From Yuukianura sp. NJ FZ-2021 (lineage: Eukaryota), in the NCBI GenBank assembly GCA_046563655.1, contig CM102283.1:1116001-1180000 (forward strand): 64,000 nucleotides of DNA, written 5' to 3'. The notes below the pieces were generated by a model. That model was given only the letters and a program-made list of their open reading frames with translations. It searched no databases and was not told the origin of the DNA. Shown here one piece after another: positions 1 through 58,347 of the stretch (within the stretch, counting starts at the first letter, position 1; the number at the start of each line of letters is the position of its first letter). A program made the position numbers and the translations under genes.

Positions 1-3000
1 CCGAATTGTTTCCGACTGGAGAAAAACGGACACCAATCAGACACGGGGATAATTTGTTCCCCGAAGGAGAATTCTACAAACGCCCAGTTGAACCGACTCC
101 AAAAGGCGAACGAGCTCCGGTCAAAAAACCTTTAGACAATTTGAAAACATCCGAGGAGGAATTCAGCCAAAGAGTGACAGAAACTTTTACAATTGGAGAA
201 AAACGAAGCCCAATCCGACATGGAGACAATCTCTTCCCGGAAGGTGAATTCTACAAACGACCAGTCGAACCCATTCCAAAAGGAGAAAGAGCTCCAGTAA
301 AGAAACCGGAAGACAATTTGAAGCCATCCGAAGAGGAATTTGAAACTAGGCCAGTCAGCAGTGTTCCAATTGGTGAGCGACGAAGCCCAATCAAACACGG
401 AGACAATCTTTTCCCGGAGGGTGAATTTTACAAACGTCCAACTGAACAAGCTCCCAAAGGCGAACGAGCACCGACCAAAATTCCAAAAGACAATTTGAAA
501 ACATCCAAGGAGGAATTCAGCCAAAGAGTGACAGAAACTTTTACAATTGGAGAAAAACGAAGCCCAATCAGACATGGAGACAATTTGTTTCCGGAGGGAG
601 AATTCTATAAGCGTCCTGTCGAATCAGCTCCGAAAGGCGAAAGAGCTCCAGTCAAAAAACCCGAAGACAATTTGAAACCTTCTGAAGAAGAATTTGAAAC
701 GAGGCCAGTCAACAGAGTTCCGGTTGGTGAAAAACGAAGTCCAATTCGGCATCCCGACAACTTAAAACCCGAACAAGGGGAGTTTACGCAGAGGCCGGTC
801 AGCGATACTCCAAAAGCAGAACGTCGGACGCCCGTAAAACAGAAAGATTCTCTGTATCCTGAAGGTAAAATATTCCTTTTTTCAAAAATTCAATTGTACG
901 TTTTCGAAATTTTGATTTTCTAAATGTATGAATTTTCATTTCCAGGAGAATTCTACAAACGACCGCCAGAAAACGTTGGGCCTGGTGAGCGACGGTCTCC
1001 GATCAAACAACCCGACAATTTGTACCAATCAGGTCCGTTCTACGCCAAACCAAAAGATGTCGCTCCGCTGAAAGGTGACCGCGCAGACGTTCTTCGGCCA
1101 ATTGACAACCTGCGACCGTCCGGAGACGTCGACTATGGACACAAACCGACTGCAGTTCCAAAGGGAGATCGCTATGATGCAAAAAAACCAAAAGACAACT
1201 TGTCTCCCGAAGGAGAATTCTACAAGCGACCGAAAGAACAATTTCCAACAGGCGAGAGAAGAACGCCAAAGAAACCGCAGGATAATTTGCATCTTCCAGA
1301 TGGATTGTTTACGCAGAAGCCAATGAAGGAAGGACCCCTTAAGGCAGAGCGAGCAGAAATTAAAATTCCGTCGGACAATTTGAAACCTGGCGGGAAATTT
1401 TATGAGAAACCAAAAGACGACGTCCCGGTTGGAGAACGACGACGTCCAATTCGTCATGAAGATACACTCAAAACTGAAGGTAAATTTTTCTTCTGACGCT
1501 AAAAAAAACAATGGTGCATCGTAGTTAAAAAATTTTAAAAAAAAAACCTCCTTATTGCTTTTTCTTCAACTGCTCTTTTAGCTCTTGAATAAAACTTCAT
1601 CACTTTTTGTCTCTTGCCATCGTATTTATGTGGTTGTGGGCTTACTTTATTAAATTGCATATTAAAATTTCAAATTCCAAAAACTAACAAATTCTTCAGC
1701 TTCTTTACTCATAATTTCACCTGTCGCGTCCATTTTGTTGAAACATTGCTCATTTTTAGGTCAATTTTACAAGAAACCGGTTGAAGCCGTACCGGTTGGT
1801 GAGAAACGATCTCCGGTAAAACATCCCGATAACTTGTTTCCTGAGGGAGACTTTTACAAGCGACCGGTTGAGGAAGTTGGTAAAGGAGAGCGGCAGAAAC
1901 CGTACAAATACAAGGACAATTTGTTCCCGGAAGGCGAATTTGCAAAAAGAGATGCCCAAAAAGTTCCTGTTGGGGAACGAGCCGAAACGAAACGCCCGGT
2001 AGATAATTTGAAAATGGAGGGAACGATGGAACGGCGTCAGAAGAGTCCAGTACCCACCAAGGGAGAACGTGCACCCGTCAAGAAACCAACAGGTTGGTAC
2101 ATACGCAATAAAACTCTAAAATTTGACTAGGGTTGCTTAAATGTAATGTAAACAGAGACAAAAAAAAACTCAAAAAAAAAAAATCAGTGAATTTTTTGAA
2201 CTAAACTTTCATACAACTAAAAAAAAGGAAAGCTTCAAAGCTCCAAAAATTGAAATCCGTGACACCTCATTTAACACAATTGGGACAAAATTATCTCGTG
2301 CAAAAATCTCTCGATAAGTTGTATGTTAACTTTTGAATTTTCGTCGAAATGTTTTGAGAGGGCTCATTTTTTCTAAAAAAAAATTTGAGGACACAAAATT
2401 TCATTCAAGATTCTTCCGCATGGACAAGAGATTCAGAATTTTTTTTTTTTTGACAAATTTTTCTTTTGGAATTTTTTTTAATAACTGCAAAATATTTTAG
2501 ATAATTTGAAGATGGAAGGATCCTTGGACGTACTGGAGTCCATGAGCCGATCTCAGCACAGATCTTCCAGAATCGACACCATGAATTCTCTGATTCAAGA
2601 GCGAAACGAAGTCAACCGTCGTACGAAACACACAAAATCGCAGATTGTTCTTGGAGAGGACGAAGGTGATGCCCGGTTCGAGCGAACTACCGTTGGAAAA
2701 CGCACGACAATTGAAAATAGAAATGTAACCAATGGTCACTTATCACAAGAGAACACAATTGCATCATCAATTCGACAGTCAGCTGAAACGAAGACCAGCG
2801 AAGATCGATCCGTTGAGCAGAAAGTATTGTCCAATACGATCTCAGCTAAATCGAGCATGAATCAAACCATTCTGCTCAACAACGTGAATCGAAGTGCACA
2901 GGAGTCGTTGACTCACTCCCAATCAACCAATCAGGTTGCACAGACGACGTCAACGTCGAAACAATTGACGCAAGACAGGATGCAGCAGCAGTTGGAAGCT

Positions 3001-4578
3001 AACAAGCGAGCGACAACTGAAGTCCAAGTGAAACGAGAGATTACGGTGACACAGAGACAAGCTGTTGCGGGAGAGACTTATGCAAATGTAAGATCCATCA
3101 CGGGGACAAGCGATGCACAAACGCAGAATCTCGTTTCTTCTACTCAGAATCAACGCAAAGAAGTTTCAAATCAGGTGAGCAAGACGCATGCGTCGTCTGT
3201 CCAGCAAAACCATGCCACGCAGGCACATCACGCATCAACTTCACATGTCTCAACTCTTCAATCTGCGACATCCCAAAACCAAATGATTTCTGCACAGCAA
3301 TCAAATATTCAGCAGATGACTTCTGCACAGCAAGCAAGTCAAAACCAAATGATGTCTGCACAGTATTCAACCCAAAGTCAAATGACTTCTGCACAACATT
3401 CCAGCAATGTAAGCCAATCACAGAAGACGGGTCAAGAAATTCAAAACCAAACGTCTTCCCGCCAAACATCTCTCCAAAATCAAACTTCATCACTTCCGGG
3501 AACACTCCAGCGTCAAAACTCTTCCGTCCAACAAAGGAATCTCACCGATTTAAATCAGCAGTCTTCCAGCATCCGCCAATCTTCCACCAATCAAAACTCT
3601 GCTTTTGGATTTACTCAACATTCCAGTCAACAGAAGTCAATGACCTCCAGTTCTGAAACAAAGCAATCCAGTCACTTTGCCACTTCTTCTTCAACCCAAA
3701 GTCAAAGTTCATCAGCGATTCAGCGATCTTCCAGTGACGCTGCTCCCATGTCATCCGTCACCCAGTCTTCAACCTTCTCCAGAATTGGAGGAGGAGGAGG
3801 ACTCCAAGAAAAGACTTCTGCGTCAACACATTCCAGAATTGTCGATGCTGGATCTGCATCAACACATTCCAGAATTGTCGATGCTGGATCTGCATCAACA
3901 CATTCCAGAATTGTCGATGCTGGATCTGCACCGGCGCAGAACTGGGGCAGCCGTAACGAAGCCACCGGGAAATCCCCGTTTGCTTCTCAGTTGAGAGAGA
4001 CGACGACTTCTACTGCAAGTGGAACTCAGTCAGCCTCGTCCACAACGAGAGGTCAATCAGGGCTTGTGATTCGTCACGCAGAGGTCATCGGAGGTCACTG
4101 CCCTCTGCACCACTCTGGACTAAGCTCTGGATCAGGATCATCGTCTGCCCACTCCAGAAGCTCCAGTCACCATAGACTAGAAACTGGGCACTTGGTGTCT
4201 GGTGGCAGAGGTCAACAGGTCATTCGGCAAGACAATTTGGGAATGTCAGGAACTTTTGATGGTCAGACGTCATCGAGAAGCTCTTATGGAGCTCATACGA
4301 TTGGATCCAGTGAGAGAGCGGTGCCTGTGAGACGTAGTGGTGGAGGTCAATCTACAATTTCATTGGGTTCGTACAATCTCCTGGAGGGGTCAAGTAGGAG
4401 CAGGTCAGAGGTCAGGAGTAGTGCTAGAAGTGGAGAGTCGAGCAGTTACAGGACGGAATTTAAGCGGCAAGAAGTGAAACCGTGCCCTGCTGCTTTGCTG
4501 GAATCTGGAAAATCCCCGTACAAGTACGAGCGGCAGTCGTCCAGTCATCGATTTTACATGCCCGCAGTTTCCAACTAA
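1..4578 (+). CDS. 3' part of a large repeat protein: many GE(K/R)RxPxx(H/P)xDNLxPEGEF repeats, a Ser/Gln/Thr-rich region and a SAXO/STOP-like C-terminus. Exons ~<1-864, 946-1479, 1760-2092, 2501-4578
   Basis: ORFs 6-923, 924-1496, 1735-2130 and 2506-4578 join through GT-AG introns in consistent phase. The C-terminus SSYRTEF...PCPAALL...YKYERQSSSHRFY resembles the SAXO (FAM154) C-terminal motif. The family call comes from motif memory only. Confidence 0.6.
3818..3930 (+). repeat. 36-bp coding tandem repeat, about 3 copies (SASTHSRIVDAG)
   Basis: Direct repeats of tcaacacattccagaattgtcgatgctggatctgca. Confidence 0.9.
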
Positions 4579-6071: not shown

Positions 6072-8006
6072 ATGTCAAAATCTGTTTCTGTAGATAGAAG
6101 TTCCACTCCAAATGGAAGTAATGAAACGTCGAATGACGCAGATTCTTCACCCGACGATTTTTACAGCGGTGGACAGTGGCGACAATATTTTGCAGCATTT
6201 GCTGTCAACTTGTCCATGATGAGTGTGGGTAGTGTTTTTTCTTGGCCCGCCACTGCTGTACCCAATATGCTTAGCACTGCGTCGATTCCACTGTCCGTCA
6301 GACAAATCGGCTTGATTACTTCCATTTCGTCGGTAAACCAAACAATATTTACACGTTTATATTAAAATGTATAAAATTTGAAAAAAAAAAGTTTTCAATT
6401 TGGCTAATTTTTTGAAAATTTTAGTTGAGTGGCGTAATTGTGTGTCCACTGATGGGCTTCATTATACAAAAATTGGGCCTGCGCAGAAGCATGCTCACGC
6501 TCACAATTCCGCTTTTACTGGGATGGATTTTGATGATTTTTGCTAAAGACTGTTGGGTGCTAGTCGCTGGCAGATTCATAACTGGTATTTTTTTAAATTT
6601 TAAAAGCCAAGCTTTCAAAATCAAAATTTTTCGAAATTTGAAAAAAAATTTTTTTTGAGATTAGGATTTTGTTCCGGTGGAATGATCATAGCCAATCCCG
6701 TATTTTTGGCCGAAACTGCCGAAAAAAGTTAGAGGGCGTTTGGGATTTTCGTTTCAGATTATGTTCGCCTTTGGGGAATTATACATGTAAGGAACTTTTT
6801 CAAAATTTAGAAAAACTATACTTTTTTTCAAAATTGCTAATACCAAATTTTGGACATAGATATACTATAGGAGCATTTGTGTCTTGGCAGTGGCAAACCA
6901 TCGCATGTGCAATCATTCCTGCAATTTTTTACGTCCTCATGATTTTTGTTCCTGAGTCACCAAAGGATCTCATCACACGCGGCAACTTCGAAGAAGCTAA
7001 AAAGAATTTGGCATGGTTCCGCTGTGCGCCTGAGCCGGATTTGGTCCAACCAGAATTCGAAAGTGTAAGGTCCCAAAAATTTATTTTGAACTTGAGGTTA
7101 AAATTTTTGTGACATTTTTCAAAATTTCAGATGGTAAAAGCCGCCAAGGTAGCAGAATGCAATCAACTCGAGTTGAAGGATTACTTTTCGGCGCCAATTG
7201 TAAAACCTACGTTGATGTGTATGATACTGGTGTTCCTGTTTCCCGTCAGTGGAAGTTCGCCTACGCTGAGTTACACTGTGCAAATATTTGAATCAACAAA
7301 CTCTGGAAACAGTTTCTTGGCAACTATTTTTGTAGGACTGGCACAGTTGGTAGGATTTAGCGCCATTTTCAAAAAATGTGATCGAAAATTTGGGAACAAA
7401 TTCTTTTACTAAAAACCGGATTTCTGTTTTTAAGATTACGACAAGTGCTACCGCATTGTTTGTGGATAAGGTTGGACGTCGCCCTCTTCTGCTTCTATCG
7501 TCAGCTGGAATGGCCATATGTATGCTCACGCTAGGAAGCTACATGTACTGGGAGGCAAATTTTTGGCGGTTTTTCCCTATTTCGGTTTTGATGGCTTACA
7601 CGATACTGTTTGCATCCGGGTTTGGTCCGGTACCGTGGTTACTCATGGGAGAAGTGATTCCACCGGCAGCTAAAGGTATGCAAAACGGGCAATAGCACAT
7701 ACTTATTGTGTCAAATTGGATGTCGCATGTGATTGTTTACCATTTGTCGTATGTCATTTAGGTTACACTTCATCAGTCATCGTTGGAACATATCGTTTCA
7801 CTGCTTTTACCATCCTTTTCATCTACCCTGACATGGTAGAATGGTTGGGGTCGGCAATATGCTTTTTCGTATTTGGCGGCGCAGGAGTCCTTGCGACGAT
7901 TTACATTTATTTTCAAGTTCCAGAGACAAAACAAAAGACGTTGGCGGAAATCCAGAAGATTTACAGTAAACCACTTCCACAGCCGACACCGCATCAATGC
8001 GTGTAG
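6072..8006 (+). CDS. MFS sugar porter (Tret1/GLUT8-like facilitated sugar transporter), about 7 exons, with one apparent frameshift in an A-run at ~6722-6727
   Basis: Motifs seen: RQYFAAFAVNL, LGLRRSM, GRFITG, AETA..VRGRLG, VPESP, VDKVGRRPLLL, GFGPVPWLLMGEVIP, VPETKQKTLAEIQ. Introns are GT-AG. Confidence 0.9.
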
Positions 8007-9721: not shown

Positions 9722-12348
9722 CCCGGATTCCAAGAGCAGAACAATAGTGGAAGCTCTCCAGGTCTCTCTTTAGCGAGAATTCCTTAATTGGAAATTTATT
9801 TATGAGATGTTATCTTTATTGAGAGTTCCTTAATTAGAAATTGGTTTGAGGAAGAATCTCTGGATGAAGGAAAAATCGCTGGGGAATGTAATTCCCCAAT
9901 TCCCGTGATACCATCTTAAACACTTGGAGCTTAACATCGGGAAATTTTCTTAATTGACTTTAATTTCGTTCTGCCCTTGAAATTTTCCTCTTTTTTTTAA
10001 CCTAATATTTGCAATTACTAATTATTGTGCATATTGTGCAATATTGCAGTGCAATTTACTAGTAGTACCTGCAACCATATTTTTTTTTAGATTTTTGTAT
10101 TTTTGGAAGTCCAGAATTTCAACTGATAATGTTTCGTTTTAATTACTCTGGGAACTTTTTTCCCACAGAAACGGAAAGACAAACTGATAAACTCATTAAA
10201 ATTAGACTTGAAGCTAATTTTCTCAGAAACCGAAGGAACATTTATTCTGTGCTATGAATAGCAGTTCTCGTTGCAAAGTGAGATACGGTAATAGGCCTAA
10301 TAAATTCTGCTAGAAGAACTGATTGGTACTTACTGATAGCGTATATAATAATTCAGAATATATAAATTTCGAAACAGAACCTTTTGGCAGTCTACTGGCA
10401 GTGCAGTATTATTCAATATCAAAGTGGTTGGTTACTCTACTAAGTTGCGAAGAATTGCTAAACGTCAAACAGCTAAAAAGTTTACTGATCTTTGAAGTGC
10501 AACAAAATGAAAGGTGACATCAATTTATGCATTCATAAGATAGTTAATATTATTTGTTAATAAGCCACTTCACGGCAATAGCAAAACATACTAATGCCAA
10601 TTCATTTTAATTTTCCTAAAATTTATACAAAGTGACTCGTACCGATTGGGTTTTGTAAATTTAAATACTAATTTGTCATTCAGCCCAGGATGTGTAGTAG
10701 AATATTCCATTGATGATAAAATACAACTTTTGAGCAATCCTGTACTTAAGCTGCAAAAGTTCTCTATAATATCATGCATTTTTAACTTAACCAAAGCTAA
10801 TTTGGGAATGAGACTCATATTAGTGTGAAATATTTCGAAATCATTCAACACTTGATTTGTACATGTTAGGTCCGGAGAGCTGGGTGACGTTGGCTAGGTG
10901 CGACGCGGATGCATGGGCGGCGACGGTGCTAGCAAGGTCAATTCGAAGGACTCTTACGACACGGCGACTCACAATTGCTATCTCTGAAAACGTCTCGCAA
11001 CCTATGAAGTAAAATTTTTCTAGTTAATTAATTTAGTGATCTTCAATATATTTTCCAGTATGTTTAATTCATACGGAACAAAACCAGCTAAAAACCACAA
11101 AATAAATTTTAGCACTAGTACAAACCAATCTAAACGCACATATATTATTGAAATACGTGAAAATTGTATGGAGACGATACATTTAAGTGGTTGTTAAAAG
11201 TGAATAATATGCCTAAAAATTTTAACTTTTCGTAATTTTATGCACAAATACATAGATTATACAGTATAAAGTATCTGGAGGTGTAACTGAAATTACTTTT
11301 TTATAGGGTTCTGTTACAACTGGATTTTGATTCCGTCGTGAGATTTGAATCGAGCGAAATAGGAAAGACGGGAAGTGAAATTTTTTGGCTATGGAACTTG
11401 CGGAGTTGGGAAAAATGTGTCTACGTCGATCCATATTCTTTCGTAAGCATTATATTTATAAGCACACATATATACTGAAATTCTTCTTTTAGTACATTCA
11501 ACTATTACAATGCATAATTACGGTGGCATTTCAGTTTTTATTGTAACGTAGGTAAGCAAGTATTCAGATGAATTGTTTGAAATGGCAACTTTTTCGGCGG
11601 TCGTCACCCGGAACCAAACGTCAAAATTTTCGACAGATATCTTCGTCTTTACTCCAAGTGCTCGGGAATTTGACGCACTTGTGGACTTGAACAATTCTGA
11701 CGGTAAAAATTTTCGTTACTTAAAACCGTCTCGTTCCGAAGAAATTTTGAAGAAATGAGTTTTGCTTGTGACCTACGCATGGCTAACTACAGTTTGATTT
11801 AACTAAATTTAGTTGACGTTAATGCGATACTCAACACTCGCTACAAACATTTGCTTCCAAATCCGAAACATCATATTCCACCGTCATTTTCGCTGAATTT
11901 AAAAGAGCCCGGCAACAACTCAAGGTATGCTGGATTTATATTATCTTATATATTGGTACTTATTATACATAAAGATATCTTCAAAGATGTTTACATAAAT
12001 AGAGAAAATTGTATATAATAACATATCCTACAGTCTTACGGGAACGAATATCATCATTTTTGGAGACTTGTTATGGAAGAAAAGCTGGAGTAATCATGAA
12101 AACTTCTATAAATGGACAGCAACCTTTGTACATGAAGTGATTCCTCAAATCAATCAACTAAAGGTAACAAACATTATTTATAACAATTTTTTAATAAAGC
12201 GGACTATCTAAATGAAAAGCATATTTTGGGAATTGTGGCGATTGGTCAGTTAGTCCCCACTGCCCATCGCCAGGATGGAGAGTGTATGAAGTGGCCCAGT
12301 CTCACTCCCATCACACACACCAGTTCCCTTCCCTGGACAAGCCAGATT

Positions 12349-12422
12349 GAACCGGTACCTCAATTGGTAGAGAGAGCAGCTTTCCGGAAAGAAAAGGTAT
12401 TGGTTCGAGTCCCACACGGTTC
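12349..12422 (+). other. tRNA-derived sequence (pseudo-tRNA/SINE-like) inside a ~250-bp copy-1-specific insertion in PKS intron 6
   Basis: A-box-like tacctcaattggtagag, B-box ggttcgagtcc, and acceptor-like gaaccg/cggttc pairing. The anticodon arm is degenerate. Absent from the same intron of copies 2 and 3. Confidence 0.6.
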
Positions 12423-15400
12423 CTTTATTTTTTCTGGCTTGTCCTTTGTTTCCCTTTATCCCTCTCCCAACTCCTTACAGACAGACAAACCAGGCCAGCA
12501 CGTAAAGTAGCTTTCGCTACTTAAAAACTTCAAACATTTCTAGCTCAAATAAACATTTAAATCAACAGAACCAAAATCACGTAGAAACACTCCTCAAGTC
12601 GCTCCACGAAAATCAACTTCCAATTTCTAATGGTCCGGCCACTACTCAAGCACCAAATTTAGACAACTTTGGGTACTTGAAAAACTCTGTTGCGGTAGTG
12701 GGTATGAGCTGCCGATTTCCTGGTGCTAACAACGCAGATGAATTTTGGGATTTACTTGTCAGCGGGAGAGATCCAATTCGAAAGTATCCGTCCGATCGTC
12801 CTCGGCCACCCAATCACACTCTGGAGAACGAAAAGACATTTGAGGCAGGATTTTTAAAATGTCCAGTTGATGAGTTTGATGCCAAATTTTTTGGAATTAG
12901 TCCCCGAGAAGCTCCGTTTGTGGACCCACAACAACGTCTTTTGCTGGAAGTGATTTGGGAAAGTCTGGAAAATGCGAACATCAATCCACTGGGCTTGCGT
13001 AAAAGCAACACTGGAGTTTTTGTTGGAGTTTGGCAACAAGAGTATGATCGACACTTTCCAGATACAACATTGAATGCTGACGAGTATCATCATCGCTACT
13101 TGGGAAATGCGTTCAGTGCTACTGCTTCTCGAATTTCCCATTTTCTCGGACTCTATGGACCAAACTATGCCATCGAGTACAAAATTATTTTCAAAAATTC
13201 AGAAAATTTGAAACTTTAAGGAACAGATTTTTTTTGTAGAAGCGGTTGTTCAAGTAGTTCCAGTGCCGTTCATCTTGCTTGTCAGAGTCTGCGCAGAGGT
13301 GAAAGTACAGTTGCAATCGCCAGTGGCGTAAACCTTGTACTCCATTTTGTGAATCCTCTTGCTGGCGACGACTCGGATGCTTTTGTGCTTTCTGGTGATT
13401 TTAGGTGCAAGACGTTTGATGAGAGGTAACAAATCCAAACATAAATAGACATAAGTTTGGGTAGTTTTCACTAAAACTGGTGTACTAGAATGTTGATGAA
13501 TAAGTAGCGGAAGATGAACCGTAGTCCACCGTGCTGTAACGTAGTGCAATCTGCACAAACACAGCGCTGCATAGCCGTCAAGAAATAATGGTTTTCAGTA
13601 TTAAAGAGATGGTTACGAAATAATTGTGGCTGACTTTCTAGACAGACGGACAAACAGACAGAACGGCTCAACAAATAAGTAGCTTTTGCTACTTTATAAA
13701 GAACATTTCGCTACATTTTAAAGAATTCATTTCACTAAAGTGGAAATGTTTGTATTTTTTTTTTAGAGCTAATGGGTTTGTACGTGCAGAGGGTTGTGGC
13801 GCCGTCGTGCTGAAACCGTTTATGAATGCCGTACGTGATGGTGACAATATCATTGGTTTAATCCGGGGAACAGCGTTGAATAATGATGGCCCAGCTACAA
13901 GTTTCGGAACTCCAAATGCGAAAGCGCAAGAACGAGTTTTCCGAGACGCTTTGAACGATGCAGGAGTGGCACCTAACGAAGTTAGCGTCGTTGAAGCTCA
14001 CGGAACAGGAACAATTGTTGGAGGTTAAATTGAACTTTTCTCTTTCTAGTCTGAATTGTAAAAAAATGGTCAATTTAAAAAAAAATTTCAGACCCAACCG
14101 AAATGTATGCCATCGGCCAAGTTTACTCAGACGGACGCAGTGAGCCACTCTTGGTTAGCTCAGTGAAGACGAATATTGGACATACAGAAGCATGCGCAGG
14201 AATGGCTGGACTAATCAAAATTCTGCTGTGTCTTAAGCACAAACAAGTCCCACCACATCTTCATCTTCAGAATCTCAATCCCAGGATTAACTTGGAAAAC
14301 ATTCCTGCAGTAATTCCAGTGAAGGTTACTGATTGGATTGCGGAAAAAAGAATTGCAGCAGTGAGCTCATTCAGCATGAGCGGCACCAATGTGCATCTCA
14401 TTGTTCAGGAAACTCCAAACGGCATAACTTCTTACGTCAAACCCAGCGTAAAGCCGTTGGAAATTATTGGAATTTGTGCCAAATCGGAAGAAGCTCTGGA
14501 AGCACTTTGTCAAAAGCACATTGCTCACTTGGAAGCAAATCCGAACCTTAATATCAGCGACATCGCTTGTACTCTGAACACCAGCAGAGCAACAATGCCT
14601 CATCGTATTGCTCTTGTTGCCAAGGATACAGCACAACTCGTTGCGAAACTACAGAGCAGGTCGTACGTAAATGGAAAAGCTGCGACACAAAAACCAAAAG
14701 TAGTTTTTCTATTTACGGGTCAAGGGTCACAATACTTTGGCATGAGCAAAAGTTTATATGAGACTTCATCTGTATTCAGAAGTGCTTTGAACCAATGCGA
14801 CACAGTTTTCAAGGCACACTTAAACTGTTCTCTTAAGCAAGTCCTTTGGGAAAATGATGCTATGTTGCAGGAAACAATTTATTGTCAACCGGCAATATTT
14901 TCAGTAGAGTTCTCCCTTGTACAGCTTTGGAATTCGTTTGGAATTTATCCTGACTTTGTTCTTGGACACAGCGTTGGTGAGTTCTGCGCCGCAGTGTGCG
15001 CAGGTCTGCTGTCATTGGAGGACGCAATGGCACTAGTTATTGGCAGAAGCAGACTTGTGGATTCACTTGAAGGTGGTAAGATGATGGTAGTCAAAACGTC
15101 TCCAGCCGAAACATATGGCTTGATCCAAGCATTTGCTGCCCAATCGAGTAATCGTTGGATAGATGTCGCTGCTGAAAATGCAATGGAGGAAGTTGTAGTT
15201 TCAGGTACAATAGAAAACGTTGAACAATTTGCTACGTTTTGTACATCACGTGGATTCAAAACCCAAGTCATCAGCGCTTCTCATGCTTTTCATTCTCGTG
15301 AAATGGATCCCGTTTTGAATGAATTTGGGCAAACAGCTTCTCAAATCTCTCACAAAACTCTCAATTTTCGATACATTTCTGGAACTTTGGCACGAGAATT

Positions 15401-17480
15401 GAATGTAATCGATTTTGATTGTTCTTATTGGGTAAGACATCTTCGAGACACCGTGAGGTTCTATGACGCTGTGATGCACTTTAATCGATTGATTGAAGAA
15501 CCAAAAGTATTTGTTGAAATCGGAAGTCAACCGACTCTATTGAGCTTGACGATGGCCAATCTACCTAACACTTCAACTGCAACATTTTGCCCTTCACTGC
15601 GCAAAAGTGAAGATGACCTGATGTGTATTTTGAGCTCTTTGTCCAAAATGTTTGTGGCTGGCGTAGATATATCTTGGGATAAATGGTATTCAGGAGCCAC
15701 AAAAATTTCGTTACCGACTTATCCGTTTCAGCGCCAAAAATTTTGGATTCGAAATGAAGACGATGGAATTCCACTTTCTCCACTGCTGCACCCCCTACTT
15801 GGACGACACGTACCATCTCCCGTGTCTGATCAGGTTTATGCGCAAGTACTGTCACCAAAAGAGTTAAAGTACGCAAGTGATCATCGCGTAGCAGAAAAAA
15901 TTATTCTGCCTGCCGCGGCTTACCTTGAAACAATCATGGCCGCCGGTTGTCAAGTTTTGCAGGGTGGAAAAGTCCATGTTCCATTCACAGTTGAAAATCT
16001 GCAAGTCGAAGCTCCGTTGGAACTCTCTAAATCCTGCCAAGTTCAAACCATTGTGCGCAGCCTCGGCGAACAAGATGATTTTAAGTTTGAAATTGGGATC
16101 CACAAACAACTTTCCCGCGAAAATTTAGACAAATGGAAAAGATACGCTGTTGCCGTATTTGGGCCCAGCCTTGATGTTGCCACTCATTCTAATATGGAAA
16201 TTTATGCAATTCAAGAACGGATGACTCCAACAGAATCAGTTGCAGAAGCATATGAAGGAATTGCAAAAGCTGGAATCCAGTTTGGACCAAAATTTCAGTC
16301 CATTGTTCATGCATGGAAGGGTGACACGGAACTACTCACTGAGATCCAAATCCCAAACGATTCGCACTCATACATTTGCCATCCAATTGTTTTGGATGCC
16401 ATGATTCAAACATTTGCACTTCGTACGGCATTGCTTTCTACTGAAAAACCAGAACTCCAACTTCAACTTCCAGTGAGCATCAAAAAGTTTACTTGGTTTT
16501 CACGTGAACCTTCACAAAAAGTCTATGCCTATAGTACCTGGAACACCGATGCGCAAAGTCAGGGAACCGTTTGTCTTCTGTCTGAAGCTGGGGAGACTTT
16601 AGGTGTCATGGAGGGTCTCGAGTTGGTCGTTACCACGGTAGCCAACTTTCTCCGCGTGCTAAACACTGAATCCAACTTGTTACCTGGATTCATGGAAGAA
16701 GTCTGGCGTCCAACTAGCGGAATTACACGAAACAGAATTGATCCAATGAAATTTCAGCTCCGACAATCAAAACATACTGCAGCAACAATGGCATTCATTA
16801 ACTCAGAAGTAGAACCTTACTATGAACATACTATGGAAGTTTTCAACAATGTACTTGTTTGTTGTCTACTTCGCGCAATCATTGAATGTCAATGGCCTTG
16901 GCCAAGTGTAGGCGCAACAATTCAAACTGATGACTGGGCTGCCGTGTCTCCGCCAGGCCTCCGTATTGCTAAAACTCCAAAACTGATGGAAATTCTAGAA
17001 ATTCATAATTTCATGAAAAAAGTTGACAACAACACGTTTAAAATTCTTAAAGAAATACCTTCCTTGAAAGAACTGGAAGATAAAATTGAGCTTGCATTCA
17101 AATCGGATGCCAAATTGATGACAAACATTGAATTTCAGTTTGCCAAAAGAACTGAGACGAATTTTACTGCGGTTCTCTCGGGATCCATTTCCCCAGTTCA
17201 GTACATGTTTTCAGAAGATATCACTGACGTCACAGGAGCTACAGTCCATGCTGAAAGTTAGCACTAAAACATGATATGATTCAGTATTATTGATAATATT
17301 GTAGTTGATTTATTTGAACTATTTTATTTTATGTTGAAATAGCCTTTGGTGCTCGTGAGACCGCCGAACTAGCAGCTAGCCAATTGGTTGATTTTGTCAG
17401 TTCCAGCGATAGAAGTTCCGACGTGCTGAGGATTCTGGAAGTTGGTGGTGGTTCTGGAGCAACGTGCGGATTTGTGATCG

Positions 17481-18422
17481 CGTAGCAGGTGAAATGGTCA
17501 AAACAATTTGGCCAAAAGTGAAATGATCAGAGGTGAAAAGGCCAGAAGTGAAATGGCCAAAGAGTGAAAATATCAGAATTGAAATGGCCAAAAAGTGAAA
17601 AGGCCAAAATCTAAAAACGCCAAAAAGAAATTGGCCAAAAAGTGAAATGACCAAAAAGTGAAAACGCCAAAAAGTGAAAAGGCCAAAATATGAAAAGGCC
17701 AAAAAGTGAAAAAACCAGAATTAGGAAAAAATTACTTTCAGTGGGTAACTCGCATTTTCTTTATTTTTTATTTTTATTTGCGAATATGACCCCCCTGACC
17801 ATGAAAAAAAATTTTTTGGCCCGCTTTCAAAAATTTCGAATTTTCGGGAAATTATGAAAAATGCAATTTCGCTATAAGGGCACACGTTAATTTTTTCTCA
17901 AAATAGGTCTTAGCTTATATTTTGTTAGGTTAGGTTATGTTTTTAAATGCTTAAGCAATTTTGATATAGCATTTAGGTTAGGTTTGGTTAACTTTCAAAA
18001 AATGGGATTTTTTTGTTTAGAAAAAGTTAACATGGAGTATTTTCCCATTTTTTACATCTTCTAAAAATTCGAAATATTTCAAGCAGATCGCAAAAAAATA
18101 TATTTTAGTGGCAGGGGGTCATATTTGTATTAAAAAAAATGTAGAAAACCGAGTTACCCACTGAAAGTATTTTTTTTCCTAATTCTGGTCTTTTCACTTT
18201 TTGGCCTTTTCATATTTTGGCCTTTTCACTTTTTGGCGTTTTCACTTTTTGGTCATTTCACTTTTTGGCCATTTTCTTTTTGGCGTTTTTAGATTTTGGC
18301 CTTTTCACTTTTTGGCCATTTCAATTCTGATATTTTCACTTTTTGGCCATTTCACTTCTGGCCTTTTCACCTCTGATCATTTCACTTTTGGCCAAATTGT
18401 TTTGACCATTTCACATGGAATC
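17481..18422. mobile_element. Non-autonomous foldback/TIR DNA transposon with 8-bp TSD, inserted in the PKS copy 1 MT exon
   Basis: TSD tgtgatcg at 17473-17480 and 18423-18430. Long inverted arms (near-perfect for ~270 bp, then imperfect) built of ggccaaaaagtgaaa subrepeats. Absent from copies 2 and 3. Confidence 0.92.
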
Positions 18423-21233
18423 TGTGATCGATCGATTGCAACAAGAAAACATTCCATTTCAGTACACATTTACCGACATTTCACCACTCTTTCTGCATGA
18501 GGCTAGCAAAAAGTTCACTAAAGGAGTGTCTTTCGCCGTGTTCAACATTGAAAACGATCCGATTGGTCAAGGGTTTTCTCCAGAAGAGTTTGACGTCATC
18601 ATTGCAACCAACGTGATTCATGCAACGGCAGACATTAGACAAACCCTGCGAAATTTGAATCTCGTACTCCGTAACAACGGACTTCTTATCATCGCCGAAA
18701 CATTTAAAGAACCAGAATCTCTGGTGCTCACATTTGGACTTTTGGACGGATGGTGGCGTTTTACCGACGACCGGAAAAGTTCTCCACTGTGTGCTGCAGA
18801 CCGTTGGAAACTCGGGTTTGAGCAAGAAGGATTTGACGAAATTGAAACAAAAGAAATATTTGGACCATATTGCGGAACTGTAGCTGGACGTAAAGTAAAA
18901 AATGGAAAACAAGAAGAGTCGGATTCAAACTCGTGGCTTTTTGTATCAGATGAATCCGAACTAGAAAACATTTTGAAAGAAAAAATGAAACTAGCTGGAC
19001 GGAAATGTTTGGAATTTTCGGAAGATGTTCCTCAAGGCCTTGAAGGAATCATGTTTCTTTGGACTTCTCCGACAGTTTACGAAGAAAATCAATTCAAGTG
19101 TCAACAATTGCTTCATTTTTGTCAAAAATTTGTATCGGCATATCAAGATTCCAAAATTAAACCTAAATTTATTTTGGTGACACGCGGTGTTTACTACTTG
19201 GGAGATGCGGGACCCGGAAATCCAAATTCATCAACAAGTACATCTTTTGTACGAACGTGGGCACATGAACACCCAGACTTCAATATAGCTTCGGTTGATC
19301 TTGACCAAGATGAACAGAATCCAGAACGAGAAGCAACCGAATTATTTGCAACGATTTGTTCCAAAGAAAAAGAAATGTTCAAAGCCATACGAGAAGACAA
19401 AGTTTTTATGCAACGACTTGTTGCTTTGAATAACAAAAACTTGGCAATTCCTTTGCCAAACTCAAATAGATTCAAAATCGTCAACCCACCGACCAAAAGT
19501 TTAAACGATTTGCAAATATCGGTTGCCCCAAAACTTGAACCAGTTCAGGACGAAGTTGAAGTTGCAATTCGTGCAACGGCACTTAACTTTCGTGATCTTT
19601 TTGTTATCTTACGTCCGGAGGGATTTGATCTTCCAGAAAATTTGAACACGGAACCAGGTCTGGACATATCTGGAATTGTATCAGCGGTTGGACCAAAATG
19701 TTCAAAATTCCAAATCGGAGATGAAGTATTTGGATACGTTTCAGGCGGAGGGTTGGCATCGCATGTTATAACGTCTTCGCAAATGCTAATTCGGAAGCCA
19801 CTGGAAATGACTTTCGCATCCGCAGCAACAATTCCTGTAGCATTTCTAACGGTTTACTATTCCTTCCACAAGTGCGCAAAACTTTCTTCTGGAGACAGAG
19901 TTTTGATTCATGTAGCCACAGGCGGCGTGGGTCTCGCTGCAATTCAAATGGCAAATATCATTGGCGCTGAAATTTTTGCCACGGCTGGAAGTAGGAGAAA
20001 GAGAGCGTACCTAAGATCAATTGGAATCAAACATGTCTACCATTCCAGGAATACGGATTTTGGTGATGAAATTTTGAGAGACACCGATGGAACAGGAGTA
20101 AACGTTGTACTAAATTCCTTGACTGGACCAAATTTTAAAGAAGCTTCACTCAAAGCTTGTGCTCAAGGCGGCAGATTTGTGGAAATTGGGAAAATTAATA
20201 TTTTCACGAAAGATGAAGTGAACAGTATGCGCCCTGATGTCAAATATTTTATAGTAGCACTTGATAAAAGTACTATGGAAGAACGAGAAGAATCGTATCG
20301 ACTCTCTGCTGCGGTGGAACAGGAATTTGAAAAAGGAATTTACAAAGGACTTCCGCATGACACGTTTTCTCTGGACATGATTCGAGAAGCTTTTTTCTAC
20401 TTTCAAGAAGCGAAACATATTGGGAAAATTGTTGTCACAATTCCAGAACCGAAGGCTTCCTCTGACGGAAAAATTTATTTCCAAAACAATCTTTTCAATT
20501 CACAAAGTACTTATCTCATCACTGGAGGTTTGGGTGGCATCGGAATTGAAGTTGCCAAATGGATGACTAAACTGGGAGCACAAAACATTGTCCTCGTTGG
20601 ACGAAATCCACCAACCAATAGCTGTCAAGAAGTTTTGAATCAGTTGAATGCTGGTGGTTGTCGCGTATTAGCTGTACAAGCTGACATTAGTGCGTACGCG
20701 GAATGCGAAACATTGCTGCAATCAATTGTAGATTTGAATTTTCCACCACTTCGTGGCATTATGCATGCAGCAGGAGTCTTGTCAGATGGAATTGTTGTGA
20801 ACCAATCGTGGGATAGATTCGAAGCAGTTTTTGCACCCAAAGTCAGAGGAACATGGAACTTACATAAATTGACTACTGGATACGACCTTGAATTTTTCAC
20901 AATGTTTTCAAGCATGGTGGCAATTCTTGGACTTCCTGGACAAAGCAATCATGCAGCAGCAAATAGATTTTTGGACTCGTTTACACACTACAGAAATTCA
21001 ATTGGTCTTCCTGCAAACAGCATAAATTTTGGTCCTTGGTCAGACGTGAGTCAAATTAATTTTTATGTAACTAACCGTGCAGTTTTTTACTCCTAACTGC
21101 AACAGGTTCTCTGTCTCTCTTTAAAACCATTTGCTGCGAATTGGTACATTGCTCCGAAAGTCAGATTGTTCCGAAATAATATTGTTTACTAACCTAACCA
21201 ACCCAAAGCTTGTGACTTAAAGCGCAACCTAAC

Positions 21234-21746
21234 CAGGGTTTAAAAAAACATGTTCAAAAATAAAAAAAACAAAACACCGTGTTTTTTTTGTTTAAAACAT
21301 GTTTTCTTTGTTTAAAACGTTTTTTTTAATTTTGTGCTTTCACGATTGAGAATTACACGGACAAATCCAATTAAGTCGCAAAGTGCCAGTTTTATGACAC
21401 AGAATATGACTTTAAGAATGTTGCCCGACTTTACTAACTTTCTAGATGCATCGATAATGAAAATAATTCAATGTCGGAATAACGACCTAAGAACGTTAAG
21501 AAGCAGACTCGTGTCTTTTCAACACAATTTTTACCATTTTTGGTTGACACTCCAGTTGGTTAATATAAAAGCCATGCAAAATCACCACACATGCATTTTC
21601 TGTAGCTTAATTGACTTTTTTCCTGAATTTTTGGAGCATTTTCTCATTTTGTTTTAAATCAAACATTTCGCCTTGTTTTAAACAAGTGTTTTAAACATGT
21701 TTTTAACACCAATTAAAAACATTTGATTTAAAACAACTTTACCCTG
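21234..21746. mobile_element. hAT-like MITE in the last intron of PKS copy 1
   Basis: Ends CAGGGT...ACCCTG, with 8-bp direct repeat aacctaac on both sides. Absent from the equivalent introns of copies 2 and 3. Confidence 0.7.
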
Positions 21747-24164
21747 AACCTAACCTTACAATTTATAACCTTAGTACCTCGGCAATGCTATAAGCACATT
21801 ATTGTAGTTTATTCAGCTTTGGAGCTACATGTTTGTCGGAGAAATTTACCTTTCGGAGCAATTGTTTTTGTGGCAATTCATTCGGACCAATTTGGTTCTT
21901 CCACTGTAAATCTGCTTAAATCTTCTTCCTAACCTTCTTAAATTTTCTTTTTTTAACAAAATTTAAGAATAGGAAGAGAAAGTTGATTTTGATTTTGTAG
22001 ATTGGAGTTGCAGCAAATCTTAAAGCAGCGGAGAGTGGTATACTTGGCATACGCTATTTTACTCCATCACAAGGGCTCAATTCAATTGAAAGAATTCTTC
22101 GAACACAACGTCGTAACGTAATGGTGGCGGAGATCTGTGATTCTAAAAGTCTTAGACAACTTTGCCGTTTGGGAAACTATTTCGAGGAAATGAAAATGGA
22201 TGTCACTCAAAGCGAAATTGGATTGGAGGCATACAAAGCCATTATTGACGACATTAAAAATTCAAGTCCAGAAGCACGCCAAGAAAAAATTGAAAACTTT
22301 TTGGAAAAAGCCATCAAGGAAACATTGCGAATTCCTGAAAATGAGCAGTTGGATCGAGACCAAAATTTTTCCGAAATCGGAGTCGACTCACTCATGGCAA
22401 TGGAACTGCGCAATCGCCTTCAAGGAATGTTGGGAGACAAGCAGTTGACTCTAAGTGCTCTGCAGGAAAACAGAACCATAAGAACCTTATCGGCCCACAT
22501 GGCACATCTTATGAACTCCGATGAATCGGTGGTATCCGTTGCAGAATTGGTGGCTAAAGATGTGATTTTGGATCCTGAGATCCGACCCACGTCAAAACCA
22601 GCTTCAAAACCAAGTGAATTTAAAAACATTTTGTTAACTGGAGCTACAGGTCACTTGGGAGTCAATCTCATCCCAATGTTGCAAAATGAAAATCCAAATT
22701 TAGTGATTCATTGCATTGTGCGGGGCAAGAATTCAGAGGAAGTGGAAGGCCGCTTGAAGGAAACTCTTCAATTGTATTCTTTGCTTGAAAAAGTGAATTT
22801 TGAAAAAATTCGAGTTTTTGTTGGAGATTTATCCAAACCAAGTTTCAGTTTACCACTGGAGGAGTATGAAGCATTGGCAGAGAAAATCGACGCCGTCCTG
22901 CACTGTGCTGTTAAATCAAACTCATTCGGTGAAGGGAGTTCGCGCAGTAACAATGTCGGACCTACCGTCAACGTATTACATTTTGCTTGTACCGGAAATA
23001 CAAAACCTGTACTCTATGCATCATCCTTGCTAGCGGCGACTACTGTAGCCGAGAATGGCTCTTTGGCAGAAGATTTTCCAACTGTGGACGACGTTGGGAC
23101 TTCCATTAAAAATAGCTACATGCTTTCAAAATTCGTCTCCGAAGTTCTAATGTCGCAAGCAAGTGAACGTGGAATCCCAGTAACAGTCATACGCTACGCA
23201 AGTATTTTTGGAAATAGTTTAACAGGATTTGTTCCAACGGAGAAAAATCATGTGTGGGGAATACTCTCTTCTTGCATTCGAGTGAGGAAGTTTCCTAGCA
23301 TTGGTCAAAATGGAATTCCTATTATGGCGGTTGACACTGCGGCGCAAGTCACTGCGCAGATCTTCTTGCGAGATTCAATGGAGACAGGAGTATACAACTT
23401 GACAAGTTCATCAGCAATATCCGAAGAGGGCATTGCATCTGTATTTTCAAAATATGGAATCGACGGGGAATTTGTACCACTTTCGGAATGGCGGGATTTA
23501 GTTTTTGCAGAACTTGATAAAAATGAGCTTGGTCCATTTGTTAGCCTTTATGGAGACGATGAGCAGACGCAGACGCTAAGCTACCTTGGAATTCATCCTC
23601 TGGCAAACCAAATCTCTGCTCTAAAGTTTAATTCTGTAAATGACAAAGTACGACGAAACTGTCCAGATTTTGAGAAAAGTATTGTTCCAATTGACAAACT
23701 TTTAGGAAAACATCTTGAGTACTATTATGACCTGTCACGAAAGAAATAACGCGAATTCCCAATGCTTCATTTGAAAAATTTTTGCGTTCCTAGATTTAAG
23801 TTTCGGTTTCTGAGGTGTGGAACTTTACATGGATAATTTTTCTCTCGAATATCAATATTAGCCATGCTTGAGTTTTTTCTAGCCTGATCCTAAACTTCAA
23901 CCTCGTATTGTCGAATTTCATTAAAACTTATTTCCTCTTCATGCTCGATCAAACTAGGAAAATAAAAATGATACAAATAAAATTTTAATTCTTATACAGT
24001 TAATCAAATGCATTGTTAATTGCCTCAAGTGTTTTCGACCTTAAAATACAAGTCGTACATGGCTTCGCTAATCTTTTCAAGTTGCTTTGATTTCAACGAC
24101 AGATCTCAACGAAAGTGTTTTATTTTTGTTTAAAATGATTCTTTACCATTTGCCGTTCATATAT

Positions 24165-24410
24165 CTTACACTTCCGTAGTTATCGTTGAACCGTGCAACT
24201 GCTTTTACCATCCTTTTCATCTACCCGGACATGGTGGAATGGTTGGGGTCGGCAGTATGTTTTTTTTGTGTTTGGCGGCTCGGGAGTCCGTGCGACGAGA
24301 CGATTTGCATTTATTTTTTAGTTCCAAAGACAAAACAAAAGACTCTGGCGGAAATACAGGAAATTTACAGTAAACGAATTCCAGATTCGCCGCTGCATCA
24401 ATGTGTTTAG
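24165..24410 (+). pseudogene. Degenerate duplicate of the sugar transporter's last exon
   Basis: TAFTILFIYPDMVEWLGSAVC...VPKTKQKTLAEIQEIYSK matches 7762-8006. It has indels and no upstream exons. Confidence 0.85.
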
Positions 24411-39519: not shown

Positions 39520-39765
39520 TAGGTTACACTTCAGCAGTTATCATACCGTCTCACTGCATTTACGACCCTTTTCATTTACCCGGAAATACATAGTGGAATG
39601 GTTGGGGTCGGCAGTATGCTTTTTCGTATTTGGCGGCTCGGGAGTCCAAGCGACGATTTGCATTTATTTTTAAGCTTCAGAGACGAAACAAAAGACTTTG
39701 GCAGAAATACAGAAACAGTAAACCAAGTTTCCATCCAGATTCGTCGTTGCATCAATGTGTTTAGA
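39520..39765 (+). pseudogene. Second degenerate duplicate of the sugar transporter's last exon
   Basis: ggttacacttcagca...gtggaatggttggggtcggcagtatgc...gcatcaatgtgtttag matches 7761-8006 with frameshifts. Confidence 0.8.
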
Positions 39766-41241
39766 CTTAAGTAATCTAATGAACCTTGACCTTTGACCTC
39801 AGCTTGAAGCAATGAGTTTATACTTCCATTTTTGTTTATTTAGTAACCTTCCATTTCAGGTTTCAGTGAAAACATTTTTTTTAATGAAAAAACTTACGGA
39901 AATTGTAAAAATTATAAATTCTTATAGAACGACTTACTAGTAATTGAAACTAAACTTTGATTGGAAACTCATAAAAATAAAAAAAATTAACAAAACAATG
40001 CTCGTAACTGAAATTTTATTAACTGTATTATCATAACACTATTCAAACAAAACGTAAACTAAAAACGTAAAAAAAATTGAAAACAAACCCTACATACAAG
40101 CTAGAAATACGGCATTTAAAGCTTAAGTGAACATTTATATTGTGACACTGTTAAGAATCATGATAGAAAGTAGGTGTATAGGAATGTTGGCATTCTGTTC
40201 TTTCCATCTCCTGGAAAATGCTAAACGCACAATGAGGGGGAGGCAAGTAAACGTTATTTTTGTAAGATTTCAAAATTAAGTTATTATACTTTTTCAAAAC
40301 AAAAGAATTACTGGAAAGATTACTGGGTTGCTTCATAAGGTGCACAATAATAATGGTAGCCAAGATATAATTTTATTCTACAAGAAATTTCAAGGTTTAT
40401 ATGTGAGAAAGCGGATGTTTTAAACTGAGAAAAATGAACGGACAAAAAATTATTTTTACAAGGAACTTAAAATTTCCCTAAATCGTAAAAGTATGATCAC
40501 GAAACGAGCAAAACAAATTCTTGTGTTGAATGTGAAATTTGTGTATATTTTATTATGTATCATGTGTAATGTATATGTTTATCTAACTGATCTAAAGCAG
40601 TTAAAACGTAGAAAGTAAGGTACGGTCGGAAACAAAACAAATCACATGTATTGCAAAACCAAGTTCTAATGTAAGGTCAATTTTCATGTAATTTCCCAAT
40701 TCCCTTGATACCATCTTAAACGCTTGGTGGCTTGGTGCTTAACATTGGGAAATTTTCTTGTAATTGACTTTACTTACGTTCCGCCCTTGAAATTTTCCTC
40801 TTTTTTTTTTACAAATGTTTTTAATTAAGACCTACAACAATATTTTTTTTAAATTTTTGGAAATCCAGAATTACAACTGAAATGTTTTGTTTTAATCAAT
40901 TTGGGAACTTTTTTCCCACACAAACGGAAAACAAAGTGATAAACTCATTAAAATTTGATTTAAAGCTAATTTTCTCAGGAATATAAGGTAACATTTATTC
41001 CATGCTATGAATAGCAGTTCTCGTTGTAAAGTTGGGTATAGTAATAGGCATCATAAATTATTCTAGAAAAACTGATAATGTGGAATATATAAATCTCGAA
41101 ACAGAACATTTTCGCAGTCTACTGGCAGTGCAGTATTACTGAATATCAAAACGCTTGGTTACTCTACTAAATTGCGACGAATTGTTAAACGTCAAACAGT
41201 TGAAAAGTTTTTGTTCTACTGATCTTTGAAGTGCGTCAAAA

Positions 41242-57802: not shown

Positions 57803-58347
57803 ATCGACATGACATAAACACTGATGCGTAAGTCAAACTGTAAAATAATGAGATTGACGCCTAACCTGGACAGGGTTGGATTTGAAGAATTGAAAAATTC
57901 TCAAAATATTCTAATTTTTGTTAAACAATTTTTCAGATAACTTCTGAATTTTCATCTTTCAACTTTGAACTTTGTTTCTCAATAGCCGTTTCGTTTATTT
58001 CATGCACAATAAACCAAAAGCTAAAAATTACTTTAGTTAAAACTTTAAGGTAACATCAGTTAGGTTAGGTTAACCTGCGTAAGCAGATTGCTCTAAACGG
58101 TTGACATTGATTAAGTCAAAAACGTCCTAACCCTGAACGGTTTTTAGAAACAAACTATAAGCAGTAACAAAAATAGAACAATCTTATCAAAGGTTAGGTT
58201 TTTAAAAAATTTCAAGCTGACAGGTTTTCAAAGCAAGAAAATTTCACCATTGCTCGACTGTGAACAGTTTCATTTGTTTGTTTTTAACTGTGTCATACAG
58301 ACCTCCTTTTTTTAACACAAAAAATCGTTTTGAATCATAACAAAGAA

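Follow-up and report, generated by a model that had tools for sequence, protein, structure and literature searches.

Glycogenin is a homodimer, and the TKLHCW, FDGGDQG and HF..KPW motifs, together with Tyr195, have active-site roles in it. The gene oskar is an example of an animal chimera, with one part from the host and another of foreign origin, and fungal highly reducing polyketide synthases (PKSs) usually follow the domain order KS-AT-DH-cMT-ER-KR-ACP-R. Springtail genomes carry dozens of type I PKS genes, previously read as horizontal transfers, and the Folsomia genome paper, in its accessible text, counts 36 biosynthetic clusters, of which 30 are type I PKS clusters, and flags the majority of the genes as horizontal transfers (PMC5490193). 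Here, we analyzed a stretch of 64,000 nucleotides (nt) from Yuukianura sp. NJ FZ-2021 (assembly GCA_046563655.1, contig CM102283.1, positions 1,116,001 to 1,180,000 of the forward strand), which we call the window. This is spliced eukaryotic DNA with a G+C content of 32-43%, and its plus strand carries one large gene in three tandem copies, in which a phase-0 intron would link a glycogenin-like (GT8-like) domain in frame with the iterative reducing type I PKS that follows. We propose, with a probability of roughly 78%, that the domain is a pseudo-glycogenin whose source was a glycogenin gene with introns, most likely that of an animal, and which lost catalysis, was kept by selection and was fused in frame to the PKS.

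The exons of copy 1 were determined by direct reading of the sequence and by recomputation, with the splicing predicted from the DNA. The GT8-like part consists of six exons with cumulative ends at 7, 146, 282, 433, 545 and 675 nt, followed by introns of phases 1, 2, 0, 1, 2 and 0 (Table 1). All intron boundaries of copy 1 are GT-AG, and the six GT8-like introns lie within 225 codons, while the PKS part holds five such introns across 2,905 codons. An earlier sequence-only reading of this DNA had proposed a coding start exon of just 7 nt (ATG AAA G) and introns at c.146, c.282, c.433 and c.545, all of which proved exact, and its tally of six introns in 225 codons against five in about 2,900 PKS codons also held. 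The full model of copy 1 comprises 3,130 codons with one terminal stop, provided that the insertion at 17481-18430 is set aside; three elements make up the gap 17257-18430, a small intron at 17257-17342, an exon of 138 nt at 17343-17480 and, within the coding sequence, a foldback transposon of 950 nt. Exon 7 opens with a linker of about 38 residues before the KS domain, and in copy 1 it has no Met ahead of the conserved KS motif GMSCRFPG, so the start codon of the PKS must come from the upstream exons. On the later exons, Pfam identified KS, AT, DH, methyltransferase, ER, KR, ACP and a terminal NAD-binding reductase in one reading frame, which is the domain set of an iterative reducing type I PKS, and the KS cysteine motif SGCSSS is visible.

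The six GT8-like exons, their splice sites and the ATGAAAG-gt start exon are all retained in copies 2 and 3, and across the three copies the exon lengths differ by a single in-frame change of 6 nt. The copies are 0.86-0.91 identical in the GT8-like exons versus 0.72-0.80 in the aligned intron columns. Among the three copies, the ratio of nonsynonymous to synonymous substitution (dN/dS) is 0.26-0.32 in the GT8-like exons, about twice the PKS value, which is 0.14-0.20 in the KS, AT and ACP-R exons. The domain is clearly under purifying selection, and the six-exon model exceeds chance, being retained in the three copies and in a metagenome contig (L001) described below.

We then compared the domain with known proteins. 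Searched against the sequences of the PDB, exon 2 alone matched 19 proteins, all of them glycogenin chains (best E 0.038), and a profile that combined exon 2 of all three copies with that of L001 again gave 19/19 glycogenins (best E 5.8e-4), with profile positions 3-45 corresponding to residues 5-47 of human GYG1. The exon-4 profile behaved likewise (19/19, best E 0.0098), its positions 4-46 matching rabbit residues 110-152, and the exon-2 and exon-4 matches are collinear. No glycogenin match in the PDB was obtained with exon 3, either singly or as a profile, or with exons 5 and 6, and Pfam found nothing on the five single GT8-like exons, which are too short. In a library-wide search at E <= 0.001, the exon-2 profile had 114 matches, the named ones being glycogenins of molluscs, nematodes, insects, a rotifer, a tardigrade, fishes, Capsaspora and an aphelid, plus the PKS of Folsomia candida. 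This list contains 19 full-length proteins; blastp matched the spliced domain to 17 of them at 70-84 bits, and 16 of those 17 are glycogenins by source name or Pfam. Against a profile of 119 glycogenins, the spliced copies scored 67.3-70.3 bits, L001 scored 89.3 and the Folsomia PKS N-termini 42-44, versus a maximum of 5.8 bits for 1,500 shuffled sequences; the glycogenins for this profile and for the tree below came from a search with the Folsomia glycogenin that gave at least 120 near-full-length matches.

A structural model was obtained for P0121, a 221-aa GT8-like protein encoded on a 1,051-nt contig without a PKS part and 43% identical to copy 1. Its AlphaFold model has a mean confidence (pLDDT) of 83.6 and finds human glycogenin-1 as its best PDB match (E 1.8e-22, TMq 0.84), with bacterial GT8 enzymes such as LgtC (E 8e-10) far behind; the alignment behind the model is mostly of glycogenins and favours such an outcome. 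With P0121 as a stand-in, the modelled domain has the GT-A fold of glycogenin. Taken together, these comparisons show the N-terminal half to be a glycogenin homologue, and the assignment made in the sequence-only reading is borne out by the PDB searches with exon profiles, by blastp and by the 119-glycogenin profile.

Intron positions were read on a ruler, the Drosophila glycogenin P0255 (W6, D102-A-D104, G161-G-D163, H212), the numbering being that of the GYG1 papers (Asp102, Asp163). Intron 2, which falls in codon 49 of the window gene (K49) and codon 48 of L001, was aligned by hmmalign to glycogenin codon 48, that is c.143 in phase 2, and intron 3 (phase 0, after the degraded DxD) to the position after L106, that is c.318; both carry an asterisk as their hmmalign posterior. 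Intron 1 of L001 (phase 1, codon 3) was placed by hmmalign at c.7; exon 2 of the window has one extra codon early on and its own codon 3 is not alignable, and the start exon is still 7 nt. Intron 4 (phase 1) maps to c.469 by MAFFT, and its L001 counterpart to c.472 by hmmalign. It reaches c.481 only after a 3-4-residue gap is moved, and lies 0-4 codons from that position, which, like c.318, we take to be an exon end of human GYG1. Intron 4 would thus share phase and neighbourhood with c.481, its identity not being proven. Introns 5 and 6 (c.545 and c.675) fall in a stretch too diverged for alignment to the glycogenin profile.

For c.7 and c.143 the human exon ends are documented in the accessible parts of the GYG1 literature: the variant c.143+3G>C affects the intron 2 donor and leads to skipping of exon 2, giving p.Asp3Glufs*4 (PMC4809457), and c.7G>C is listed with 'p.spl' (PMC7046021). 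In the GYG1 literature, as far as accessible, c.164 and c.304 belong to exon 3, c.487 to exon 5 and c.646 to exon 6, which brackets two more exon ends between c.304 and c.487 and a single one from there to c.646. Exon-sized fragments among the matches mark the same boundaries independently. Among 94 short matches to exon 2, 33 stop exactly one codon past the c.143 position (22 of the 70 canonical glycogenin-like fragments and 11 of the 24 degenerate ones), as is expected from read-through of a phase-2 GTAA or GTGA donor. The canonical fragments P0149, P0177 and P0198 extend across exon 3 and end directly behind FLDADT[LM] and one further Val; this terminal Val is a GT donor read as a codon, which implies a phase-0 intron at c.318 in true glycogenin genes. 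In P0217, an annotated glycogenin model from the snail Batillaria attramentaria, L106 is joined straight to ..CRFRDKIKIVHF.. and about 95 residues are skipped, which would fit exon ends at c.318 and near residues 201-203 and may be an annotation artefact.

By our arithmetic, three given sites would be hit by five random introns among 674 sites with a chance of about 2e-7 under uniform placement. At least three of the six introns, at c.7, c.143 and c.318, are placed by alignment at glycogenin positions with the same phase. The sequence-only reading had named c.7, c.143 and c.481 as human matches: the first two are upheld both by hmmalign (c.7 through L001) and by the two variant reports, and c.481 is not established, as it depends on where a gap is set.

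The metal-binding and catalytic motifs have been lost. Asp102 is essential for the self-glucosylation of glycogenin, according to the accessible text of PMC5203857. At the equivalent of the manganese-binding DxD motif (Asp102-x-Asp104), copy 1 has V-D-P-Y, copy 2 I-N-P-Y, copy 3 I-D-P-Y, L001 L-D-P-T, P0121 L-N-S-N and the Folsomia PKSs L-D-C-N(-C), so that the second Asp is gone in all eight GT8-like rows of the alignment and the first also in copy 2, P0121 and P0183. In the MAFFT alignment, the TKLHCW, FDGGDQG and HF..KPW motifs are replaced in every GT8-like row and a loop of about 10 residues is deleted. The region of the acceptor Tyr195 is replaced or unalignable, and the C-terminal half of the domain lies outside the alignment to the glycogenin profile. 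The replacements vary from lineage to lineage, the pattern expected when selection on catalysis has ceased. By sequence, the GT8-like domain has ceased to be a glycosyltransferase.

We further examined how far the arrangement extends beyond the window. A protein search with the large PKS exon returned mostly bacterial modular PKSs, and P0005 was the sole close relative among the 120 matches listed; scanning metagenome contigs with P0005 then led to L001, the contig that holds it. Upstream of its PKS, L001 has a 7-nt start exon (ATGAAAA-gt) followed by exons of 136, 136, 154 and 106 nt, in the same phases as in the window, and the spacing of 7 + 136 nt puts its introns at c.7 and c.143, exactly the human spacing. 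Like the window, L001 carries the fusion with the six intron positions and phases, at about 48-64% identity; unlike the window, its introns are short (59-98 nt), its exon 2 is one codon shorter and it has one extra intron. This extra phase-0 intron, at 1603-1664 of L001, lies in the equivalent of exon 6 and was either gained there or lost here. Four of the five PKS introns of the window are seen in L001, and the fifth is apparently read through at residues ~1050-1100 of P0005, judged by eye from an AT-rich in-frame stretch; part of this database protein is probably intron.

The same N-terminal domain occurs in PKSs of the springtail Folsomia candida, namely XP_035716828.1 (1,559 aa), OXA63741.1 (2,388 aa) and P0362 (2,383 aa, on the same scaffold), which are named 'PikA1-like', 'erythronolide synthase' or 'EryA2-like' in databases. 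The one of the three scanned with Pfam, XP_035716828.1 (P0184), gave KS-AT-DH and later domains and no GT8. As in the window, a degenerate glycogenin-like domain with the DxD lost directly precedes KS-AT-DH; unlike the window gene, these PKSs are known here from proteins, and their identity to the window is low, at 30-47% for the PKS part (P0362) and about 32% for the GT8-like part. Since the domain is common to genes this far apart, the join predates a deep split and is not recent in this animal. Upstream of a further PKS piece, L003, neither GT8-like exons nor a KS came up at the thresholds applied, and L003 was not counted as an instance. Among the 94 short matches to exon 2, 24 (including P0122-P0129, P0132, P0138, P0143, P0147, P0178, P0216 and P0229) have a degenerate exon 2 without TND.Y..GA; they come from metagenomes and assemblies. 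Judged from such fragments, a large family of pseudo-glycogenins appears to be widespread in environmental eukaryote DNA.

The word 'glycogenin' is absent from the Folsomia genome paper (PMC5490193), and no paper describing a glycogenin-PKS fusion was found in the literature, subscription journals and supplementary files lying outside the search. The proteins are thus already in public databases, and the fusion is undescribed as far as literature searches reach.

Several observations weigh against a glycogenin origin with fusion to the PKS. Confident alignment to glycogenin is limited to the first ~145 residues, introns 4-6 are not objectively mappable onto it, the exact human exon ends at c.318 and c.481 were not found in the literature searched, and Pfam detected no PF01501 at E <= 0.001 in the relatives P0121 and P0184, as with the single exons. 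The junction between exons 6 and 7 is a splice predicted from the open frames, the agreement in phase and the gene models of Folsomia. Each assembled copy is damaged, by the transposon in copy 1 and by frameshifts in copies 2 and 3, and a structural or dimerising role for the domain is the weakest step of our proposal. The GT8-like sequences do not pair with the springtail glycogenin in our tree, and placing them outside the group of all animal glycogenins was not rejected by the approximately unbiased (AU) test (log-likelihood difference 4.26, p 0.395).

This tree, a quick maximum-likelihood estimate, had 41 rows (8 GT8-like sequences, 31 animal glycogenins, Capsaspora and Paraphelidium, with no fungal, plant or bacterial GT8), and it united the GT8-like sequences on very long branches with a Shimodaira-Hasegawa-like approximate likelihood ratio (SH-aLRT) support of 84, nested within a starred bilaterian group of 32 rows. 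It neither proves nor refutes an animal donor, and the argument is carried by the intron evidence. The sequence-only reading had a duplicate of the animal's own glycogenin gene, start exon included, joined to the PKS; the glycogenin origin, the start exon and at least three introns of that proposal stand, and the nesting among bilaterian glycogenins was recovered without reaching significance. The AU result leaves room for a donor outside the animals, a fungus or protist that already had these introns as ancient opisthokont introns and gave rise to the GT8-like part or to the whole chimera. Such a donor would also suit the flagging of most Folsomia PKS-cluster genes as horizontal transfers, in the accessible text of PMC5490193, and the order of the PKS domains, which is the usual one of the fungal enzymes mentioned at the outset. 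However, the free tree places the clade among the bilaterians and not beside Capsaspora or Paraphelidium, the exon ends c.7 and c.143 are on record for a vertebrate in the accessible parts of the GYG1 papers, and among the 114 exon-2 matches the only PKS-linked protein is that of Folsomia, every other named full-length match being an animal, Capsaspora or aphelid glycogenin. We consider this origin unlikely.

Could the two parts be separate genes, with a stand-alone degenerate glycogenin-like gene upstream of each PKS and no fusion protein? The splicing is predicted from DNA alone, read-through past the exon 6 donor stops after about 15 codons (open reading frame (ORF) 11999-12208), which makes a stand-alone product possible, and P0121 sits on a short contig that lacks a PKS part. 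Yet the end of exon 6 and the start of exon 7 are both in phase 0 with open frames in the three copies and L001 despite length changes, no Met precedes the KS core in exon 7 of copy 1, the pair was duplicated as a unit and is present three times, and independent Folsomia annotations (RefSeq XP_ and GenBank OXA) join the domain to KS-AT-DH in one protein, making two genes a rather improbable arrangement. We give still less credit to the domain being an active sugar transferase that glycosylates the polyketide or primes the enzyme with other catalytic residues. Purifying selection and the glycogenin-like fold of the P0121 model would agree with activity, but the second Asp of the DxD is gone in every row and the first in some, the FDGGDQG and TKLHCW motifs and the His-bearing HF motif are replaced and the loop is deleted, and the replacements are lineage-specific in the manner expected without selection on catalysis. 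Hardly credible is a coincidence or parallel gain of introns at favoured sites in a gene whose structure is unrelated to glycogenin: just three positions are exactly mappable and intron gain favours proto-splice sites, but these three agree in both position and phase, the 7-nt first exon among them, L001 repeats the human 7 + 136 nt exactly, and many independent glycogenin fragments end at the same boundaries.

Under the pseudo-glycogenin origin that we favour, the 5′ part of a duplicated glycogenin gene, with its 7-nt start exon and internal introns through to the end of the catalytic domain, would have been joined upstream of an intron-poor PKS, and this join would have supplied the PKS with a start codon and its first introns. 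Duplication would then have multiplied the chimera, which now has three copies in the window and at least two in Folsomia candida. What was retained may be a non-catalytic structural module at the N-terminus, the most plausible role being that of a cap that dimerises or scaffolds the KS dimer, given that glycogenin itself forms homodimers. A homodimer prediction with two copies of P0121 returned 'no answer' (score 0.00) and is evidence neither way. As a tentative extension, which we regard as doubtful, capture of the glycogenin 5′ end (promoter region, 7-nt exon and five introns) may have made the springtail-type PKS family expressible, and the dead domain may have become an obligatory structural module, dimerising or regulatory, kept for hundreds of millions of years.

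For the springtail PKS genes, which the accessible text of PMC5490193 treats as horizontal transfers, glycogenin introns in the first exons are hard evidence of residence in an animal genome and not of contamination, and likewise that at least the 5′ part of these genes goes back to a gene whose introns were those of an animal-type glycogenin. This offers a concrete mechanism by which a PKS gene gained a start exon and introns and, if true, a route for domesticating a foreign or intron-poor megasynthase gene by host-exon capture. It also reveals a conserved, unannotated pseudo-enzyme domain on animal PKSs, with dimerisation, regulation or localisation as possible roles, which may matter when springtail synthases are expressed to find unusual lipids and polyketides.

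The coordinates of the three copies and of the transposon are collected in Table 1.

Table 1. Gene copies and inserted transposon in the window (numbering from the first nucleotide of the stretch)
Feature	Position	Strand	Remarks
Copy 1, exon 1	10507-10513	+	ATGAAAG then gt; 7-nt coding start exon; phase-1 intron next
Copy 1, exon 2	10870-11008	+	139 nt; ends c.146, phase 2; about glycogenin residues 4-48
Copy 1, exon 3	11307-11442	+	136 nt; ends c.282, phase 0; degraded DxD (V-D-P-Y-S-F) at its end
Copy 1, exon 4	11552-11702	+	151 nt; ends c.433, phase 1; about glycogenin residues 107-157/160
Copy 1, exon 5	11813-11924	+	112 nt; ends c.545, phase 2; strong divergence
Copy 1, exon 6	12034-12163	+	130 nt; ends c.675, phase 0; predicted end of GT8-like domain
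Copy 1, junction intron (GT8-like part / PKS part)	12164-12568	+	phase 0; contains high-copy repeat
Copy 1, PKS part, linker-KS-AT-DH-cMT-ER-KR-ACP-R	12569-23749	+	Pfam domains on exons and exon model
Copy 1, PKS exons	12569-13176, 13240-13425, 13767-14023, 14092-17256, 17343-17480, 18431-21045, 22001-23749	+	
Foldback transposon in cMT coding exon, copy 1	17481-18430 (region 17473-18430)		950 nt
Copy 2, GT8-like exons	26616-26622, 27126-27264, 27582-27717, 27893-28043, 28149-28254, 28349-28478	+	PKS part then to ~38612
Copy 3, GT8-like exons	41242-41248, 41571-41709, 41930-42065, 42200-42350, 42470-42581, 43125-43254	+	PKS part then to ~53110

The transposon in copy 1 has terminal inverted repeats of 246 nt that are 98% complementary, an 8-bp target duplication (TGTGATCG) and a body of ~16-nt tandem units, and it is a high-copy element with a contig depth of 20-100 times that of its flanks. 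In three runs of one sample, DNA contigs pass straight from 17472 to 18423 and lack the transposon, so an intact, empty-site allele of copy 1 exists, and the insertion is young. An alternative in which the element is spliced out as an 'introner' was ruled out, since the element begins and ends with cg, the frame is not restored by any GT-AG pair and reading through it meets a stop at codon 1677. Relative to copy 1, the PKS exons of copy 2 carry two single-base frameshifts (~31610 and ~35714) and a PKS exon of copy 3 carries one (~46779, in an A run); one of the frame changes in copies 2 and 3 falls in an A6/A5 run. These may be either recent pseudogenisation or assembly errors, and the PKS dN/dS of 0.14-0.20 implies that any decay of the two copies is recent.

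Among the other features of the window, the region of the intron between exons 6 and 7 holds a repeat at 12216-12669, where contig depth rises several-fold and loose ends are numerous. It is probably an element like a short interspersed nuclear element (SINE), and ARAGORN found no tRNA gene at the locus, this repeat included. Exons of a sugar transporter of the major facilitator superfamily (MFS) lie ahead of copy 1 (6425-8003), and fragments of the transporter peptide (..FTILFIYPDMVEWLGS..) reappear after copies 1 and 2 (24134-24407 and 39523-39771), which implies that the unit of tandem duplication included pieces of the neighbouring transporter gene. At 3-4575, long open frames with repeats of the peptide ..GEFYKRP..P.GE..P.K.PDNL.. 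are followed by a 697-codon ORF, and none of these gave a Pfam match; they would represent a gene for a repetitive protein ahead of the cluster. Positions 56018-59455, 60593-61138 and 62492-63813, 3′ of the PKS array, hold two tandem pancreatic-type lipase genes, a scramblase gene on the minus strand and a cytochrome P450 gene. The neighbours of the array (sugar transporter, lipases, P450 and scramblase) are spliced genes and, taken with the link to Folsomia, suggest a springtail or an allied arthropod as the host.

Compared with the described systems, the closest counterpart of the N-terminal part is glycogenin itself (GYG1/GYG2; CAZy GT8; PDB 3qvb, 1ll2 and 4ueg), with which the domain shares about 145 collinear residues and, as far as alignment can place them, the introns c.7, c.143 and c.318 in the same phases; human glycogenin-1 is the best structural match of the model of its relative P0121. 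Unlike glycogenin, the domain lacks the DxD and the other catalytic motifs, has a loop deleted and, by the exon model, runs into the KS linker instead of the C-terminal region of glycogenin. As a chimera, the gene would resemble oskar in joining an intron-rich N-terminal part of host type to an intron-poor part, and would differ from oskar in having a dead enzyme domain as its host-derived part and a 2,900-codon megasynthase as the partner. It is this intron-poor partner that others regard as horizontally acquired, in the accessible text of PMC5490193.

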